In this document: one piece after another, positions 26,077-47,719 of the stretch
How the letters are laid out: each line of letters begins with the position of its first letter
Position numbering within the stretch: position 1 is the first letter of the stretch
Notes under the pieces: generated by a model
Databases searched by the model: none
Told to the model about the DNA's origin: nothing
Seen by the model: only the letters and a program-made list of their open reading frames with translations
Translations under genes and position numbers: made by a program
Assembly: GCA_000165345.1 (NCBI GenBank)
Contig: CM000429.1
Coordinates: 544,001-608,000, forward strand
Length of the DNA stretch: 64,000 nucleotides
Reading direction: 5' to 3'

Positions 26077-28338
26077 ATGTCAAATCAACAATATTCTCTT
26101 AATAATAATGTATTTCAAAACTTTCAAAGACAAATTTCTTCTCAAAATCAAAGTTCTTCTGAGCAAATATCATCTCAATCTTCAACTTACACTAATCAAA
26201 TGGTTAACAATAATATTAGTTTAATGAAAACGTTTGTGCCTCATACTCAAAATGGTGTTGAAAATGATGGTAGTATTACACAAGTTATTAAATACTTAAG
26301 AAAAAATGGGTATATTGAGACAATTGATACTTTGCTATTTGAAATGAATGAAAATGATAGAAAATTAAAAATTAATTCTCTTGAGAACGAGATGACTGAT
26401 TCTGAAGTTGAAAATTTAATTAATTTTACTAGGAAAATAGATAATATTGACACTCAAGTGATTTCGGATAAATATTCCAAGTTCAGAAATTGGATTCTGA
26501 ATTCGCTATCTTCTGTTCGAGAAGAACTCATTTCTGTTTGTTTTATTGTTTTTGTTAATATCTGCTATATCTTATACAAGAACTCATCTATTGAGAGATA
26601 TAGAAACTTCTTAAATAAGTTTTCAGATGATTTTTCGCTATCTAAATATAGAGAAGCTGTCACATTATTAAGAAATTCAAGTGATTTGGGTTATTTAAAA
26701 AATGCAGAATTGTTGAAACCATTTTTTGGATCGAAATTTCATATCATCCTAAACCGAACATCTATTTCATTATTGAATAACTTCTTATTGTCCCATTGTG
26801 ATACTCTAATTTTAGGAATTATGCAAGAGAAATTGGTTATTCATGCTTTTGATCACAAGACAAATAATAATGACGTTACGCTTACCAGCAGAAATGAAGA
26901 ATTGGGTTGTTTGAAGGAAGTTGGGAATTTTCAGATTGGCGAGCTTTATTCTGAAGACTCCTTATTCATTGAATTTAACTCAAAAAATAACCAAAAAAAC
27001 AATACTTATGGCGACATATCTGTAGTTGCAAAAGATGCATCAAAAGTACTTGAAACTGATATGTCAGGTAAAGGCTATTCCCAAAGTAATTCTATTATCA
27101 ACTGGGGGCTTCATCCTGAGAATTACAGTGGAATAATTTCCAAAGAAAATGAAATGAAAAAATCCAAATTTAATCGATTTGATGACGAAATTACAGAAGA
27201 AATTAAAAACGTTGAAATAGAATTCAATCCCATTAACGATTCAAACAACTCTTTTACGTTTAAATATAAAAAACATTTATATGAAGAAGTATCAAATCGA
27301 AAATTTGTTGATTCTACCCATCTTCCCTCTATAATTTGTAGCAGTTTGGAATGCTCAAATTGTAATGAAATAATTGACATGAATATTTCACATAACCATG
27401 AAGTTGGCGCATATTGTACCGATGATGGCTGTATACAAGTTTTTGATATAGAAAATCCGGAATCAAAGATTGAACCTATATGGATCCATAGAAATAGAGT
27501 ACAGTGTGTAAGGTTTCACCCATGGAATCCGGAGTTTTTATTATCTGCTGGAATCGACAGTATTATTAAACTTTCAATTATTACCAAAGATCAAGAACCC
27601 ACTTTATATCAACTAGTTACATTCTCTGGACATTCAACAAATTCTTGTATTTGGGATCTCAGCTGGGATGATCACGGGATTTCCTTTATTAGTGGCTCAA
27701 GCGACCAAAGTGCAAGATTATGGTGTACATCAAGGACTTATCCAATTCGTATATTTACAGGTCACTTTGGAGATGTTAGATCGGTGTCAATACATCCAAA
27801 CTCTTCTATTACTGTAACTGGTGGCAGCGATAATCAAATTATTATTTGGGATGTACGTACAGGAAAGAAGGAAGGCACAATTCATAACAGAAAAGTTATG
27901 TCAGGAATTATTAATCAGGTCAAATTCAGCCATAATGGATATTTGTTAGCTTCCTCTTCAATTAATAATCAAGCTACTCGCTTTTATTCTCAAAACCAGC
28001 TTATAGTACCAATTTGGGATATTCGTAAATTGTGCAATTCTAATAGAGCTACTGAATTTTATCAGCTTTGTCAATTCCCAAATGATACAATAGATTCAAA
28101 AAAACAAACGTTTGTTAAATCGCTTGATTTTTCATTTGGGAGCCGTGTCATTGCATCTGCAACTAATAGTGGTATAGTTTCTATCTGGGATACAAACGTA
28201 GAGACAAGTTTTAATCAAACGGACAATCCAAACTTAGTTAACAATTCTGCGCAGATTTATAAATTAAAGAACTCAAGTATAAAAAGCCTCAAATTCCTAT
28301 CTAGAAATTTACTATCAATATCGTCTGTAAAGTTATAG
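26077..28338 (+). CDS. TFIID subunit TAF5-like (LisH + NTD2 + WD40)
   Basis: 753 aa. It has a LisH-like SITQVIKYLRKNGYIETIDTLL. The NTD2-like block GSKFHIILNRTSISLLNNFLLSHCDTLILGIMQEKLVIHAFD matches TAF5 TSKFVLRISRDSYQLLKRHLQE...IVQEHLYIDIFD. C-terminal WD40 repeats follow. Confidence 0.65.
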   Translation: MSNQQYSLNNNVFQNFQRQISSQNQSSSEQISSQSSTYTNQMVNNNISLMKTFVPHTQNGVENDGSITQVIKYLRKNGYIETIDTLLFEMNENDRKLKINSLENEMTDSEVENLINFTRKIDNIDTQVISDKYSKFRNWILNSLSSVREELISVCFIVFVNICYILYKNSSIERYRNFLNKFSDDFSLSKYREAVTLLRNSSDLGYLKNAELLKPFFGSKFHIILNRTSISLLNNFLLSHCDTLILGIMQEKLVIHAFDHKTNNNDVTLTSRNEELGCLKEVGNFQIGELYSEDSLFIEFNSKNNQKNNTYGDISVVAKDASKVLETDMSGKGYSQSNSIINWGLHPENYSGIISKENEMKKSKFNRFDDEITEEIKNVEIEFNPINDSNNSFTFKYKKHLYEEVSNRKFVDSTHLPSIICSSLECSNCNEIIDMNISHNHEVGAYCTDDGCIQVFDIENPESKIEPIWIHRNRVQCVRFHPWNPEFLLSAGIDSIIKLSIITKDQEPTLYQLVTFSGHSTNSCIWDLSWDDHGISFISGSSDQSARLWCTSRTYPIRIFTGHFGDVRSVSIHPNSSITVTGGSDNQIIIWDVRTGKKEGTIHNRKVMSGIINQVKFSHNGYLLASSSINNQATRFYSQNQLIVPIWDIRKLCNSNRATEFYQLCQFPNDTIDSKKQTFVKSLDFSFGSRVIASATNSGIVSIWDTNVETSFNQTDNPNLVNNSAQIYKLKNSSIKSLKFLSRNLLSISSVKL

Positions 28339-28515
28339 AATCTTCACATAAATATTTATTTTCCTTTTTCCATTTTTATTTTCTCCGCATGAATTGATTT
28401 TTGACCTAATCAGACATTCTGCCGCAATAGAAATATATTATTGCAAAGAATGAAAATAAAATGACTATTATGATTATGCAAATCTTTTCAACGACTAAAA
28501 GTTAATTTTTTAATC

Positions 28516-31500
28516 ATGAAAATTTCTCTTTCCGGTTATAAAGTAATTAATTTGTTTGATCTTGAGCTTGATCGCTTGACAATAATCTCAAAAAATAAAT
28601 CGTTTCGAATATCGATTAAAAAGTTAAAAATATCTGTTTTCAATTGGTTTACATTTATCATTTTTGTTATTTATATTCTTTTAATAGGCTGCAGACATAT
28701 TGATTTATTTTTCAATTTTTTTTCCAAATTTACTGAGAAGAAAATTGCAAGTTTAAAACTAGATCAAGTAGAAATATATCATTTAAAGAAAGATGGATCT
28801 AGCGTACCAAATGTCAAAAGGTCAAATCTTATTAATTTTGTTTCTTCATATTTTGATTTTGAGCTTTTCAGTGTTTGTCTATTATCAGAATATAAACTAT
28901 TAGGAAAAACATTTTTATTTGGAACTAATATTGGATCTATTTACAAGAAAAATTATTCATTCAGGAAAACTAACATTTTTATACGAAGGATTTCTGTCAG
29001 ATTTAATGAATATTTTGATGATATTTCTACTTACGATATAATTGATTTAATTGGATTGAAAGCATATTTTTTCTCAATTTTAAAAGATCAAGAAACGATC
29101 CTAGCTTTTCCGGGTCTTTTAAACATTGATATGGTAAATTCAAATTATGAATCATTTATCACAATAATTGAGGATAATATTGAAAAGGTATACTCAGGTA
29201 TTTATTTATCAATCCCATTATTAAATTATGTCTTTTTCAACATTAAGTCGTTATTCATAAATAAAAATGGAAGTAGTTTAATTCATAACGTGTTTAATTG
29301 GAAGCTCAAGATTTTGATTAATTTTAAAAGAATATTTTTGGAGACATATGAAAGTAATAAATTATTTCTAACAATTAGTTCTATTGTATTCACTTTAGAA
29401 TATAATATGCACAACTTCTCGCTAGTAATTAAACTTTTGAATTGCTACTTATTAATCAACTTGGAAAACTCTATTCAAATTCTGGAATCTATAATTTATT
29501 TTGATGTTAAAGATAAAATAATAAGAGCGAATATGAAATATTTAAGATTATACTCAAAAGCGATACACTCTAATAGTCTCGACAACTTCATTGATGTAAT
29601 AGAGATTCCAGAAATGAATATATTTTCAACTAAGATCGAGCATTGTCCAGAAAACCTTTCGATTGTATTTTTTACTTGTATTGAATTAAATAGTGAGCTG
29701 CTGATCATTAAATTGACGGGCCTGGATGAAATCTTTTGCCAAAATGTTGAATTTAAAAATGAGATCTCAGATTTGCTTGAATTCTCAAATCAATATTTAT
29801 CAGTATCAGATAACGAAGAGAGTGTTTATACAATTTTCTATACTCTAGAGAGAATTGAAAATAAAAACTTGAATATTCAGATAAACTTTAATTTTAATTC
29901 AAATATTCAACTAATCTATAATATGAATAATATAGAACTAAACATTGAAAGAAGTCAAGCTAATTTAACATTCAACTCAAATGAGAAGTTTCTGAAGATT
30001 ACAGATTTTGAATTAGCCCAGTATAATTATTTATATGAAAATGTGTTTTCAATGAAAATAAAAACCATTTTGCTTAACTTTAAAACTAGTAACAAAAGTA
30101 TATTTTTGCAAGAAATAGTTTTTGAAAAAGAAAGTACAATATGCATTTTCTTAAAAGATATTTCAATATTTACAATAGAAAATTCATGCAATTTGAGTGC
30201 AAAAAATATAAAAATTTATTTATATTTAAATACTTCATTAAATTATAACTCAATATTTACTGTATTTGAAATTGAATACGTCAACTTTATTTTCCAAAAA
30301 ACGATTTATTGCTGGAAATCTATAGAAATATACAAGATAATTATTAAACAATGTTTTTCAAAAGATGAGCCATTATTTTACGAGCTAATAAGAATTGATG
30401 AAGATCCAGTTAAAATTCGTAATGAAAACTTGAGTAACAAATATCTAACAATTTGCATTCCAAAACTGTTATTAGCGGCAAGTAATTATCAGATAATGAA
30501 GCTGAGCAATTTGTTTTCAAATTTTAAGCAAAATTCACTCGTCAAAACTAGGATTAGTCAATTAAATTTGATTATAACATTAAATAATGCAAGTATACAT
30601 TATTACTTTCACACTGAAAATAAATGCACAACATTATTAGCTTATTTTGAGAATGGTAAAATCTTTTTATCAATTAATGATAAGTATGAAATTGACATCA
30701 GCTCAAAATTTAATCGAGTTGAAATAATGGCTGGTGAAGTTCATATTGGTAATGATAAAATAATTAAATTCCCACATTACAGTGAAACTTTGTATTCAAA
30801 ACTTCATAATAGAGACATATATTGCGATATTGTTTATTATGAAATTACGAAAAAGATCAAGACTAATCTACTAATTGATGAAGGCAAAATACAGAATTCT
30901 GGTTTTAAAGACAAAATTTTTCCAATTTTTATTAGTAGTATCGACATTTCTCATAACTTTCATATAAAGTTACGCAAAAATACAAAAATAAGAGTTCATT
31001 ACAACTTTAGTAAAGATTCTTTTCTTGTAAACTCAAATTTGGTCAATAATACGATGCTTATTTTAATAGATGTACATGATTATGTGAATTCCAATGAATT
31101 ATTTTATTCTATCAGCTCTGAAGATAATAAATACAAGCTTTCAACATTTTTGGAAAAGATAAATGATATTTGTTTGTTTGAAATTAGACTTCAATGCCTA
31201 AATATGTTATTAATAAAAGCCCAGCTCGAATCGAAATATTTAATTCTTAATTTGAATGGCATTTTGTTTTCTAACCTTAATTCTTTTGAATTATGTATTG
31301 AAAAGTTTAAGATATTTGTCAAATATCCCAGCAACAATTTCAGCGGAGAATATATAAATTTAATAATAAATAACAATCTAATTAAGGCAAATCTCAAGAT
31401 CCTAGATTCCAAAATGTTTTTTTTTGCTGAAAAACTTATTTTTAATTTAAAATTTCTAATTAGAGAATTCGAATGCAAAATTGAAGCAGTTCAACTCAAA

Positions 31501-34500
31501 GTTTCAAAAAATTTGATAGATGTGGTAGTAGGTATTGCGTTTGACTCGGAATTTAGCCATAAAGAAAATGAATTGTATTCAATTAAGTATTATCGGGGAA
31601 CAAACTCATTTCATTATTTATTCGATTTGAGGCAGTCTCAAGCATTTGTAAATAATCTAATGCTTTTATCAAATGAAGATGTATCAGTTGTTCCTTATTT
31701 TCATATTAACTGTTTAAGTAACGCAAAATTTAATATAAAAAATATTGAAGTACCACTATTTTATAACTCAGAATATTTGCTCGATTTAAATAACTCATTT
31801 TTTGACAAAATATATTCAAGTTATAATGAGCCTTTTTATTCTCGTTATTTCAATGATAACATTTATTCCATCAATTGTAGAATAGATTTAAATGTTTTTA
31901 ACTTGGATAATATCAGCAGCGAAATTCCATACTCCAAATTATGTGATTTTTCGGCAAGCAATGCCACTGTTGGATTAAAAATTTGCTTTTCCTCAAAAGT
32001 GTTCAAAGATTTGATTTTATTTTTTGGCACTAAAGTTCCAACTTGTTCTGATATATTTGAGAGAGCTATCAAAATAAGGAAAAATCAAAAAATTGAGATT
32101 CCATTTGATTTTATTGCTGATTTCCCAAACATGATGGTTTTCAAAGATACAAATTCCATAAATATAATGGAATTTGATTCGGTATTCTCTCAAAATAACT
32201 CAGTAAGTATTATTGACATAATAAAAAATTTGATAGAAAACCCTAAAGCATTTTATTTAGATTACAATTTAATTAATTCCAGTCTTTGTATTGGATTTGA
32301 GTGTATTAATTATCGTGGATCTTGCATTAATATAAATATTTTCAATATTATTAGCGTAATTAATATTTCAGGAGAGTCTCTGAGTTTTAGTTTTTGTAAT
32401 CCATATAACAACAAGCTAGAATACGAATGTATTGTGGAAAATTTGAATCAAGAATTTATTGACAACGTTGACACTAAAATAGATTCAGTTCTGTTAATTA
32501 ATGATCCAATGAAAATAACTCATCGATTTTATATCGAATTTAATAGAGTATCTCGAGCTGAAAATCATTGTTCAATTAAAGAAAATATCATCGAATTAAA
32601 TGAAACAAGATCTCAAACAAATAGTAAGAATTACAGATTATCACTGATTAAAGACAAAATTAGCTTTATTATTATTATTTGGTGCCCATTAATAATAATA
32701 AATTACTCAAACCTTGATTGCATTTTAAAGATTATTAATACAGAAAACCAAGAATACTATTTTCTGGAAGGAAAAATATCTAAAAGCAATTCATGGAATT
32801 CAATAAAAAAAAGAAATTTAAGTAATAAAAGCATTTTTTCACTTTCCAACATTGATCAAAAAGATTTTATTGAGTTAGAAATACAGTCGGGATGTTATGT
32901 TAGTACATTCTCACCATCAAGACAAAGAGAAAACGATATTTTAATAGAAGTAGAAGATTATAAGTATTTATTAAAAAGTAATTTTATTTTAAGTATACTA
33001 GAAAGACATTCAATTAAAATAAAGGTTGTAAAGCTAATGCCGATATGGTCCATTAGAAACAAATCTAACTTCAACATTAGAATTACATATGGAAAGCATG
33101 TTAATATCCCTATTAAATCAAACTCTGGATATCTAGATAATACTTATTTAGTTCGTAATACACATTTTAATTATGACATACAAGAACAAATAAAGATAGT
33201 TTTTGATGAATTTGTTAATTTCTTTTTAATAAACCTAACAAAACATGAACCTTATGAAAGGCTAATTAATTTATATCGTAATGATAAAAATCCAAATAAG
33301 GAATGGAAATTAATTAAAATATCTTTTTACCCAATACAAAACGGCTCTGTTACAAAATTTAATACTGGAATTTATATAGAACTTAATGATTTTAACGAGA
33401 ACGAATCATCTAATTATTTTGTTTTCGAAAATAAGACAAGTTTTACGTATTTGCTGACACAAGCAAATGGCCTACTAGACTTTAATAGCATAGACATAAA
33501 TATTCATAGAAAAGAAAACTTAACACAAAAAATTTGGGAAAACACTTTAATTGAGAAGCTTTCAAAAGTTTCTTTATACGATAATAAAATATTTAATAGT
33601 AAATTTTCAATTTGTTTAGTTCCAGAACAGATTAATAATCAGCTCTTTTTTTGGGCAAAAGAGAGTATTCAAGATAATAGTCCAATTACTGTTAGTTTTT
33701 ATGATGAAACAAATAACTTAAAGGTTACATTAGAACAAATTCCTGCATATTTGTTCATTAATGGAGGAACAAAGCTAATTAGATTCAGTAATTATGATTC
33801 TAATGGAAAAAATAATATATACCAATTTTTATTAAGTATATTTAAGTTTGGGAATGAAGTTACACATATAGTTTTCCATACATCTTCATTTATTCAAACA
33901 CATTATACAATTATTCCTTCATTTTTTATTCAAAGACAAATTGAATACCAATTGGTAGCTAGAGAAGAAATTGCAAACAATTATTTTTTAAATATAAGAA
34001 AATTTGAGTTAATTTTATTTAATGACATTGATTCAGATAAAGTATTAAAAGTAAAATGGACTTCAACTCCAACCAATTCGCCTAAAGAATCTCAGAAAAA
34101 TTTGTCTCTTTTTCCATCACCAAGAAAAAATGAATTGATCGACTTTTCCCCAGTTTTTCATATCCTTTTTGAACGTCTTTCAGTAAATATTCAGGAAGGA
34201 GCAAAGAAACTTGAGTTATTCGACTCAGCATATAAGATTTATTCAAATTTAAATAAAGTTTGCTGTAAAATTTCAAATTATGAGTCCACAATATTCGAGG
34301 TAAATAATCATAGAAGTGAAATAAATCAAAACCAAGTTACAATAATTTTTGATTGCTTTAAATTTAAAAAACGAGTGAATAATAAACCAAAATTTTCTGA
34401 GAAATACCAAATAAAGGATTTAATGATTCAAATACCATTTATGGATTTTAATCTAAACTTGAATATTTACTTCCGTAATTTTTTACATAATTTTGTTACT

Positions 34501-38311: not shown

Positions 38312-38384
38312 TAGGAAGAACGGGAATCGAACCCGTGACCTCTTGCGTGTGAGGCAAGCGTCATAACCCCTAGACCATCCTCCT
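38312..38384 (-). tRNA. tRNA-Val (anticodon CAC)
   Basis: Minus-strand 73-nt cloverleaf. The acceptor is AGGAGGA/TCTTCCT with one G-U pair. The D-arm is GTC..AGGGGTTAT..GAC. The anticodon stem is CTTGC/GCAAG with loop CTCACAC. The variable loop is AGGTC. The T-arm is ACGGG-TTCGATT-CCCGT. The discriminator A is followed by a TTTT Pol III terminator. Confidence 0.75.
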
Positions 38385-44937: not shown

Positions 44938-45860
44938 ATGACTCGACCTGAAACTCAGGCTCCACCAGAGTTGGTAAGTTTAGTTGCGGATTGCATTTAG
45001 AAGCTAATTAACGGAACAACTTTTCGTAGTATTATAATGAATCAGAGGCTATAAAGTATTCAAAGAGCAGCCGAATTATTGATATTCAAACTAAGTTAAC
45101 AGAGAGAGCAATTGAACTACTTTTATTACCTCAACACCCCTGTTTGATATTGGATATTGGGTGCGGAACTGGAATAAGTGGCTCAGTTTTAGAAGATCAC
45201 AACCACGTTTGGGTTGGAATAGATATTAGCGTAGGCATGTTAAATGTACTGGATATATACGATGATGACTCAGAGTCAACCGGTGATGCTTTACTTGCTG
45301 ATATGGGAGAACTTTTACGGTTCAGACCTGGCGTTTTTGATGGAGCAATAAGTATATCTGTTTTACAATGGCTTTGTAATGCTGATAGAAAATCACATGA
45401 TCCTTATAAGAGGCTTTTAGTTTTCTTTAAATGGCTTTTCAACTCATTAAATAGAGGTTCAAGAGCAGTGTTCCAGTTTTACCCGGATTCCCCTTCTCAA
45501 GTGGAAATGATTACTTCAGCTGCTTTAAAGTCTGGCTTTGGAGGGGGATTAGTGGTTGATTTTCCAAATTCTTCAAAAGCAAAAAAATACTATCTTTGTT
45601 TATGGGCAGGGTTCTATTCTACAATACCTCAAACCCTCCCGCAAGGACTAACAGACGAAAATGATGAAGAAATGACTTCAGCAAGTAATTTGGGAAGATC
45701 AGGATGCAAGTTAAAGACAAAGAAAAGGGGCAACAAAAGAGAGCATAGAGTAAAGTCAAGGGAGTGGATTTTGGAAAAGAAGAATGTTCAGAGACTTAAG
45801 GGCTTTGAAGTCCGTCCAGATTCCAAATATACAGGAAGAAAAAGAAAGAGCGGGTTTTAA
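44938..45860 (+). CDS. Bud23/WBSCR22-type 18S rRNA (guanine-N7) methyltransferase, 2 exons
   Basis: The ORF track starts at TTG 45144, inside the SAM motif LDIGCG. The frame is open back to a CGTAG acceptor at about 45029. Exon 1 is about 44938..44973, [18 protein letters not shown], with a 56-nt intron. The spliced N-terminus [43 protein letters not shown] matches Bud23 [43 protein letters not shown]. The C-terminal KRKSGF is also shared. Confidence 0.85.
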
Positions 45861-45980
45861 CACTTTTATAATATATTATTTGGATCACAATGAGAAGTGT
45901 TCAAGAACTAGTATCTTCGTTGCAAAGTATTATTAGAATAATTAGATTTGCCTATGATTATATATATTAATATTAAAAAG

Positions 45981-46334
45981 CTATTCTGCCATTTCCTCAT
46001 CTTTTTGAATCTCAGTTTTAGTTTCTTTAGATTCTTCAGCTCTACTTATATACAATACGTTGTTGCACCTAATAAATACTTTACCCAACGTTCCTTTCTT
46101 GGTATTGTCTATCCACTCTTCACAGTCATTTAAAAGAATGTTCATATATTCATCAAAGGAAACAAGGGTGCCTTTGTATCTCATGTTTCCCCATTTTAAG
46201 CAAACAATCGCAACCTTGTTTATAAGGCTGGAGAGAAATGGTTTGGGATTTACAGCAACAAGCTAAAAAAGGTTAAATTTAATTCGTTATTAAAAACATT
46301 TCGTGGCCAGCTATATTAAACTTACCCCAGACAT
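45981..46334 (-). CDS. Small nuclear ribonucleoprotein SmF (Sm-fold), 2 exons
   Basis: ORF 45981..46184 (minus) carries Sm1/Sm2 ([32 protein letters not shown]) but lacks the N-terminal strand. The frame is open for 26 more codons up to an acceptor TTTTTTAG at about 46263. The 63-nt intron has a GTAAGT donor. Exon 1 is ATG TCT GGG at about 46334..46326. The product [44 protein letters not shown] matches SmF [41 protein letters not shown]. Confidence 0.8.
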
Positions 46335-46495
46335 CGGAAGCAGATTCAATGGTTGTGGGTTTGATGGTTATTTTTAACTTGAATGTGACTAATTTGTCAA
46401 GCCCAAATTGTAGCGCGCGTGTCGTGAGATCTTGTAGATTTAAATAAAAAATTTTATTATTGTAAACTTTATTGAATCATTAGTATCTGTTTAAG

Positions 46496-47719
46496 ATGAC
46501 GGATAATACTGATGAGTTGAATGATTCCAAGATTTTTTCATGTGAAGGCTGTGGTTCCAACACAAAATCAAAATTATCATGCCCTCAATGCAAGAAGTTG
46601 GGACTAAAGACATCTTTTTTTTGTTCCCAAGTCTGCTTTAAAGAAAACTGGGCCATTCATAAACTAAAACATCAATTAGGAGGAAGTAACAAAGAAGTTG
46701 CTAAAGTTTCTCTTGACTTGGTTAAAAAGAATGTAATCCTAGATGATCCTAGAACATGGGTTAATTGCTCACATATTTCAAAGTTTATAGGCTTTAATGG
46801 TTTCACAGGGCCTTTAAGACCCTATCCAATAAGTATTAAACGAAAGGTTCCAAGCCATATCTTGAGGCCAGACTACGCTGATGATAAGGAGGGAAGACCA
46901 TTTTCTGAATTAAAAAGAAAAAAAAGTTCTGCAATTGTTACAGCAACAGCTGAAGAAATTGAGCTCCTTAGAGAATGTTGTAAGATAGGAAGAGAAGCTC
47001 TTGATATTGCTGCTTCTATGATAAAACCTGGAGTAACAACTGATGCTATTGACGAAGCTGTTCATAATTTCATTATTTCTAAAAACTCTTATCCTTCTCC
47101 ATTGAATTATTGGGAGTTTCCAAAGTCGTGTTGCACCTCTGTTAATGAGATAATATGCCATGGGATCCCTGATTTCAGGCCATTGGAAGAAGGGGATATT
47201 GTAAATGTTGACATTTCTGTATATTATAAAGGAGTACACTCGGATTTAAATGAAACGTTTCCGGTTGGAAAAGTTGACGAGAAATCAATGAAATTAATGA
47301 AAGTGGCTTATCAATGCTTAGAGGAAAGTATCAAGATTTGCAAGCCTGGTACAATGTACAGAGAAATAGGCAATCTGATTCAGTCAATTTGTGATAAACA
47401 AGGCTTTTCTGTTGTAAAAACTTACTGTGGGCATGGAGTTGGAGCTTTATTTCATTGTGCTCCTAATGTGCCTCACTATAAGAATAACAAGGCCGTCGGA
47501 ACTATGAAACCAGGCCATGTATTTACAATTGAGCCAATGATTAATGCAGGTAGATTTGAAGATATAACTTGGCCAGATGATTGGACATCGGCAACATTAG
47601 ATGGAAGTAGATCCGCTCAATTTGAACATACTTTGTTGATTACCGAGACTGGAGTAGAAGTTTTGACTAAAAGATTGGAAAGCTCACCTAAACTTGAAAT
47701 TCTTTCTGAAATAGAGTAG
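46496..47719 (+). CDS. Methionine aminopeptidase type 1 with N-terminal zinc finger (MetAP1)
   Basis: 407 aa. It has an N-terminal C6H2 Zn finger (CEGCGS...CPQCKK...CSQVCFKENWAIHKLKH). The pita-bread domain carries the metal ligands (DISVYYKGVHSDLNET, HGVGALFH, EPM, EHT). Confidence 0.9.
   Translation: MTDNTDELNDSKIFSCEGCGSNTKSKLSCPQCKKLGLKTSFFCSQVCFKENWAIHKLKHQLGGSNKEVAKVSLDLVKKNVILDDPRTWVNCSHISKFIGFNGFTGPLRPYPISIKRKVPSHILRPDYADDKEGRPFSELKRKKSSAIVTATAEEIELLRECCKIGREALDIAASMIKPGVTTDAIDEAVHNFIISKNSYPSPLNYWEFPKSCCTSVNEIICHGIPDFRPLEEGDIVNVDISVYYKGVHSDLNETFPVGKVDEKSMKLMKVAYQCLEESIKICKPGTMYREIGNLIQSICDKQGFSVVKTYCGHGVGALFHCAPNVPHYKNNKAVGTMKPGHVFTIEPMINAGRFEDITWPDDWTSATLDGSRSAQFEHTLLITETGVEVLTKRLESSPKLEILSEIE

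Follow-up and report, generated by a model that had tools for sequence, protein, structure and literature searches.

The question raised by this locus was whether a minus-strand open reading frame (ORF) of 67 amino acids (aa) represents a complete gene or the 3' part of a spliced gene for the Sm protein SmF. In the original prediction, which was made from the DNA letters, this ORF was regarded as part of an SmF gene hidden behind a first exon of three codons. The window, that is, the whole 64,000-nt stretch of DNA that was analysed, has a GC content of 32%, fitting Cryptosporidium, and the locus was found to match C. parvum chromosome 1 with 100% identity across 6354 bp (CP029780.1, 881 kb long, from assembly GCA_031892065.1). 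We infer that the locus is almost certainly a single-intron SmF gene (SNRPF orthologue) of Cryptosporidium parvum, located on chromosome 1, whose transcript would be spliced in vivo to give a 96-aa protein.

Gene structure and splice model

On the minus strand, the proposed gene consists of ATG-TCT-GGG (46334..46326), a 63-nt intron (46325..46263) and an in-frame exon 2 (46262..45981). The features of the locus and its flanks were as follows.

46326..46334, minus strand: putative SmF coding exon 1, Met-Ser-Gly; ATG TCT GGG read in the sequence
46263..46325, minus strand: putative 63-nt GT-AG intron with a T6 tract, a TAG acceptor and 25% GC; GTAAGT donor, TTTTTTAG end
45981..46262, minus strand: putative SmF coding exon 2, 93 codons plus a TAG stop, encoding the predicted helix, strands 1-5 and an acidic disordered tail
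45981..46184, minus strand: 67-aa ORF from the internal Met30, the truncated model of the 2004-2007 annotations
46335..46495, no strand assigned: divergent intergenic region between SmF and the methionine aminopeptidase (MetAP) gene, 161 nt, presumed to hold a bidirectional promoter and 5' UTRs
46496..47719, plus strand: methionine aminopeptidase 1 (MetAP1; zf-C6H2 and Peptidase_M24 domains), 407 aa, syntenic in all species
44938..45860, plus strand: Bud23/WBSCR22-type methyltransferase, 288 aa, convergent with SmF, with a 56-nt intron at 44974..45029

The 67-aa ORF begins with MRYKG. Upstream of its Met, 26 further open codons were seen in the sequence, shut by the TAG of the TTTTTTAG acceptor, just as had been predicted, and the interval ascribed to an intron with a GTAAGT donor is exactly 63 nt long. 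Joining of the exons gave a 291-nt coding sequence (CDS) for a protein of 96 aa (3+26+67); the predicted length of 95 aa was therefore one residue too short. When the intron was kept, the frame read MSGVSLI*, with more stops after it and a TAG directly before exon 2. Because the retained-intron frame ends in this way, no continuous ORF can provide the N-terminus. The GTAAGT...TTTTTTAG interval has the consensus donor extension and the pyrimidine tract of a U2-type GT-AG intron.

All ATG...GT/AG combinations that lie no more than 440 nt upstream and restore the frame into the NPKPFL block were enumerated. There were four in total, including the model with the 63-nt intron, and the combination of a consensus donor with a genome-typical intron length was found only in the ATG-TCT-GGG/GTAAGT model; C. 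parvum introns average 84-99 nt (PMC4637869). The match of the splice model to the sequence exceeds chance.

Conservation of the intron and the surrounding genes

The orthologous loci of C. muris, C. felis, C. ryanae, C. ubiquitum, C. xiaoi and the Cryptosporidium of Logan run SRR31860986 were compared with that of C. parvum. All of the compared loci were flanked by the same two genes, encoding MetAP1 and a WBS/Bud23-type methyltransferase. In all seven lineages, ATGTCNGGG stands directly before a GTAAGT or GTATGT donor, and exon 1 varies only by a silent TCT>TCA substitution in C. ryanae. The acceptor in each of the seven is a pyrimidine-rich YAG followed by CT[TA]-[GA]T[TAG]-GC[TA]. The length of the putative intron was found to vary: it is 63 nt in C. 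parvum and 74, 62, 70, 69, 60 and 70 nt in the other lineages, with remainders modulo 3 of 0, 1 and 2. Identity to C. parvum was 54-68% for the introns versus 72-86% for exon 2. Retention of the intron would break the frame, by stops or by a frameshift, in six of the seven lineages. The putative intron is supported by these conserved splice signals together with its variable length.

Substitutions were also counted by codon position and summed over all species pairs. The counts at codon positions 1/2/3 were 109/38/304 in the 26-codon extension and, similarly, 162/108/505 in the part covered by the old ORF. A protein-coding exon that is joined through a genuine intron shows just such a pattern. 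The same codon-position pattern assigns the predicted coding to the minus strand. The plus-strand ORFs at 45948..46133 and 46060..46266, which had been dismissed as antisense noise, both exist and both begin with TTG, and no Pfam family was detected in either of them even at E<=10; the dismissal is a reasonable reading. Antisense stop-free stretches of 40-97 codons lie opposite SmF in every species, so the mere presence of these ORFs is uninformative either way.

The lineage from Logan run SRR31860986 (positions 1001-1354 of the compared stretch of its contig) has an 82% identical SmF. Its intron is 60 nt long, has a GC content of 52% and contains no in-frame stops; owing to this, the ORF caller read through it and reported a 117-aa protein (P0002). 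The intergenic region of this lineage has 45% GC, which is much richer than in the other species.

The methyltransferase gene that converges on SmF has a first exon of 12 codons, and the donor of its intron, GTAAGTTTA, is the same as that of the SmF intron. Because this neighbour also combines a short first exon with a 56-nt intron, the architecture of the SmF gene is ordinary for this genome. A plain ORF listing gave only a 238-aa piece of the methyltransferase, which started at an artificial TTG. On the other side of SmF, a lone CGCGCGC is found at 46413..46419, about 85 nt upstream of the SmF ATG, in an otherwise AT-rich spacer. A similar GCGC(G/C)C(C)A is present in the same spacer of C. 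ubiquitum, C. felis, C. ryanae, C. xiaoi and the Logan species. This type of motif, which we take to resemble an E2F-like site, may be a shared element of the presumed bidirectional promoter.

Elsewhere in the window, a tRNA-Val gene (anticodon CAC; 38312..38384, minus strand) was the sole Rfam or ARAGORN match. The GC content was about 25% at 28001..34000 and 30-38% in the remainder of the window.

Identity of the protein and alternative readings of the locus

The spliced protein was matched by the Pfam LSM family (PF01423) with an E-value of 1.2e-21 over residues 12-76, which corresponds to profile positions 2-65 of 66. In a sequence search of PDB, the ten best distinct matches were all SmF proteins (E 2.4e-25 to 1.3e-20, 77-92 bits) from a thermophilic fungus, C. 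elegans, human, Chlamydomonas, S. pombe and S. cerevisiae. The next paralogues in PDB were LSm6 (1e-11, 48 bits), SmE (1e-7, 35 bits) and SmG (2e-5, 28 bits); this family comparison bears out the predicted SmF identity. The spliced protein contains both the SmF-typical NPKPFL N-terminus and the IRCNNVLY motif, and NPKPF is invariant as far as a yeast SmF in the alignment of eight sequences (alignment A1). SmF/SNRPF proteins (yeast Smx3; PDB chains 3cw1_F, 9l5r_b and 8ro0_f) are 54-60% identical to it over the Sm domain. The PDB SmF chains align from query residue 1, 2 or 6, in agreement with the claim that the spliced protein is co-linear with SmF from its first residue. Conservation extends to the Tyr-Asn-Arg triad, Lys-Trp, Asn71 and Tyr74. 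The C. parvum protein differs in one extra residue in the loop between strands 1 and 2 (WGN-M versus WG-M) and in a slightly longer acidic tail, which is predicted to be disordered; otherwise, nothing unusual was noted.

An AlphaFold model of the spliced protein was built on alignment A1. The pLDDT was 91-96 over residues 11-70, and the model comprised a helix at residues 10-15 and strands at residues 20-25, 30-39, 45-54, 57-67 and 72-77, which is the same fold of a helix and five strands as that of SmF/SNRPF. The acidic tail (residues 80-96) was disordered, with a pLDDT below 50. The top matches of this model in a Foldseek search of PDB were snRNP and spliceosome entries, with a target-normalised TM of about 0.9 to SmF chains; the SmF-named chains among them were 9l5r_b, 8ro0_f, 4pjo_F and 3jb9_I. 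In human SmF, RNA is contacted by the triad Tyr39-Asn41-Arg65 and by Lys24-Trp25 (Schwer et al. 2016, PMC4986888). These residues were found to align to Y42, N44, R68, K26 and W27 of the C. parvum protein; Y42, N44, R68 and K26 are invariant in alignment A1, and Phe stands in place of W27 in two of its eight sequences. The assignment of the spliced product to SmF is therefore supported by sequence and by predicted fold. The helix, strand 1 and K26-W27 all precede Met30, so the 67-aa protein that begins at this residue would be an incomplete Sm domain, and the earlier statement that this ORF lacks the N-terminal strand agrees with the model, in which both the helix and the strand at 20-25 fall outside it.

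It could be supposed that the unspliced 67-aa ORF, running from Met30 to the stop, is the true product and that the similarity upstream of it is unexpressed. Indeed, this ORF is present in the sequence with its own ATG, still scores as an LSM domain (E 2.8e-18), and a model of this type was deposited in several records (the original Iowa II and TU502, with a similar one in C. xiaoi). However, its match covers only profile positions 20-65 of 66, and it would be left without the helix, strand 1 and the Lys-Trp contact. Moreover, the 26 codons upstream of Met30 evolve as coding sequence and include the NPKPF block, and Met30 itself varies: C. muris, P0012, P0014 and P0015 of alignment A1 have Ile at this position. 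We consider it extremely unlikely that the short ORF is the product. It is just as hard to credit that the protein is LSm6, of the U6 or mRNA-decay ring, or some other Sm-like paralogue. Among the paralogue families LSm6 comes closest, with the same Sm fold and a similar size, yet its match is much weaker, the ten best PDB sequences scoring 29-44 bits above it; LSm6 also does not have the NPKPFL N-terminus, whereas both SmF-typical motifs are present here, and orthologues are named 'Sm protein F' in UniRef.

The chance that a different 5' exon, with another start codon and donor, is spliced to the same acceptor appears negligible. Three further ATG...GT combinations within 440 nt would restore the frame, but their donors (GTTTTC, GTCTTT and GTCCCA) are non-consensus, and their introns would be 342-386 nt long, far from the genome mean cited above (PMC4637869). 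In addition, their start codons lie inside the opposite-strand MetAP coding region, and the deposited orthologues all start with MSG. The three alternative models were rejected on the basis of donors, intron lengths and starts within the MetAP CDS.

For the single-intron SmF gene, the following course of expression is proposed. Transcription would proceed on the minus strand from the short region common with the divergent methionine aminopeptidase gene, and the 63-nt U2-type GT-AG intron would be removed directly after the third codon, joining Met-Ser-Gly to exon 2. The resulting 96-aa protein would take the Sm fold, in which a helix at the N-terminus is followed by five bent strands. Judged by homology, it would form the F-E-G subcomplex with SmE and SmG and then take up one place in the seven-membered Sm ring assembled on the Sm site of the U1, U2, U4 and U5 snRNAs. 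RNA would be contacted by the Tyr42-Asn44-Arg68 triad and by Lys26-Trp27, with one nucleotide probably bound through the triad (PMC4986888). It was also considered whether the first coding exon, of 9 nt, and the intron close to the 5' end, being genus-wide, might act as a feedback sensor that ties SmF output to splicing capacity. If this were true, at low snRNP activity the unspliced mRNA would yield no more than a peptide of 7 residues or the 67-aa form that starts at Met30 and has no helix. Such a sensor is very improbable: no finding here requires it, and the neighbouring gene also has a short first exon and an intron of roughly 60 nt.

Gene models in existing annotations

The exact 96-aa protein was found in four C. 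parvum annotations: QOY43356.1 (CPATCC_000136), KAL5370512.1 (CPHLJ_1g2690), WKS76172.1 and WRK30664.1. The C. parvum records give the gene a length of 354 nt for a product of 96 residues, equal to that of 45981..46334, which implies the same 63-nt intron; the deposited C. parvum models thus present the same gene model, with no difference. Near-identical proteins of 96-97 aa are recorded for C. hominis, C. tyzzeri, C. meleagridis and C. ubiquitum, some of them as 'Sm protein F' in UniRef. The MSG exon and the intron position are shared by the orthologues of C. hominis, C. tyzzeri, C. meleagridis, C. ubiquitum, C. felis, C. ryanae and C. muris. The 67-aa ORF, in turn, is an exact match to EAZ51349.1/XP_001388172.1, a 'hypothetical protein' of the original C. 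parvum Iowa II annotation, and the same truncated model is found in C. hominis TU502 (XP_668388.1) and in C. hominis PPS97008.1. The description of the gene as hidden is thus apt for the old annotations, in which it appears as a 67-aa 'hypothetical protein', but not for the four later ones. As to the suggested check of whether the reference annotation has no SmF gene, the original Iowa II record has the truncated ORF, and the newer annotations carry the exact model.

This history of a truncated and then repaired SmF model is explained by two reannotations (PMC4637869, PMC8744675). In 2015, the share of intron-containing genes was raised from 4.3% to 10.8% (PMC4637869). The IOWA-ATCC annotation of 2022 comprised 1926 updates, including repairs of the N-termini of Dnmt2 and 523 other genes, and its introns were stated to be 100% RNA-seq supported (Baptista et al. 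2022, PMC8744675). As judged from its CPATCC_ tag prefix, QOY43356.1 probably belongs to this RNA-seq-supported annotation of 2022. In the reannotation table, cgd1_2680, cgd1_2690 and cgd1_2700 have no product names (PMC4637869), and the tag CPHLJ_1g2690 suggests that cgd1_2690 is the SmF identifier. No paper dedicated to Cryptosporidium SmF or snRNPs was found among the ten best matches of a literature search.

In C. xiaoi, the gene RS030_81390 (JAWDEY010000036.1; positions 850-1195 of the compared stretch) is annotated as a truncated SmF of 64 aa. Apart from this model, truncation persists only in the old Iowa II and TU502 entries and in PPS97008.1. The locus still contains ATGTCTGGG followed by GTATGT, a 70-nt intron and the LVATNPKPFL extension. 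The truncated models of C. xiaoi and C. hominis could be repaired in the same way as that of C. parvum.

The repair of the gene model is correct but already known: both the SmF gene and its short intron are standard, the correct SmF protein is already available in current annotations, and the importance of the result is small beyond annotation hygiene. Because the legacy SmF models of C. parvum Iowa II, C. hominis TU502, PPS97008.1 and C. xiaoi are deprived of the helix, strand 1 and an RNA contact, they are unfit for use. For the genus, the locus illustrates that ORF-only or early models drop the starts of small intron-containing Cryptosporidium genes.
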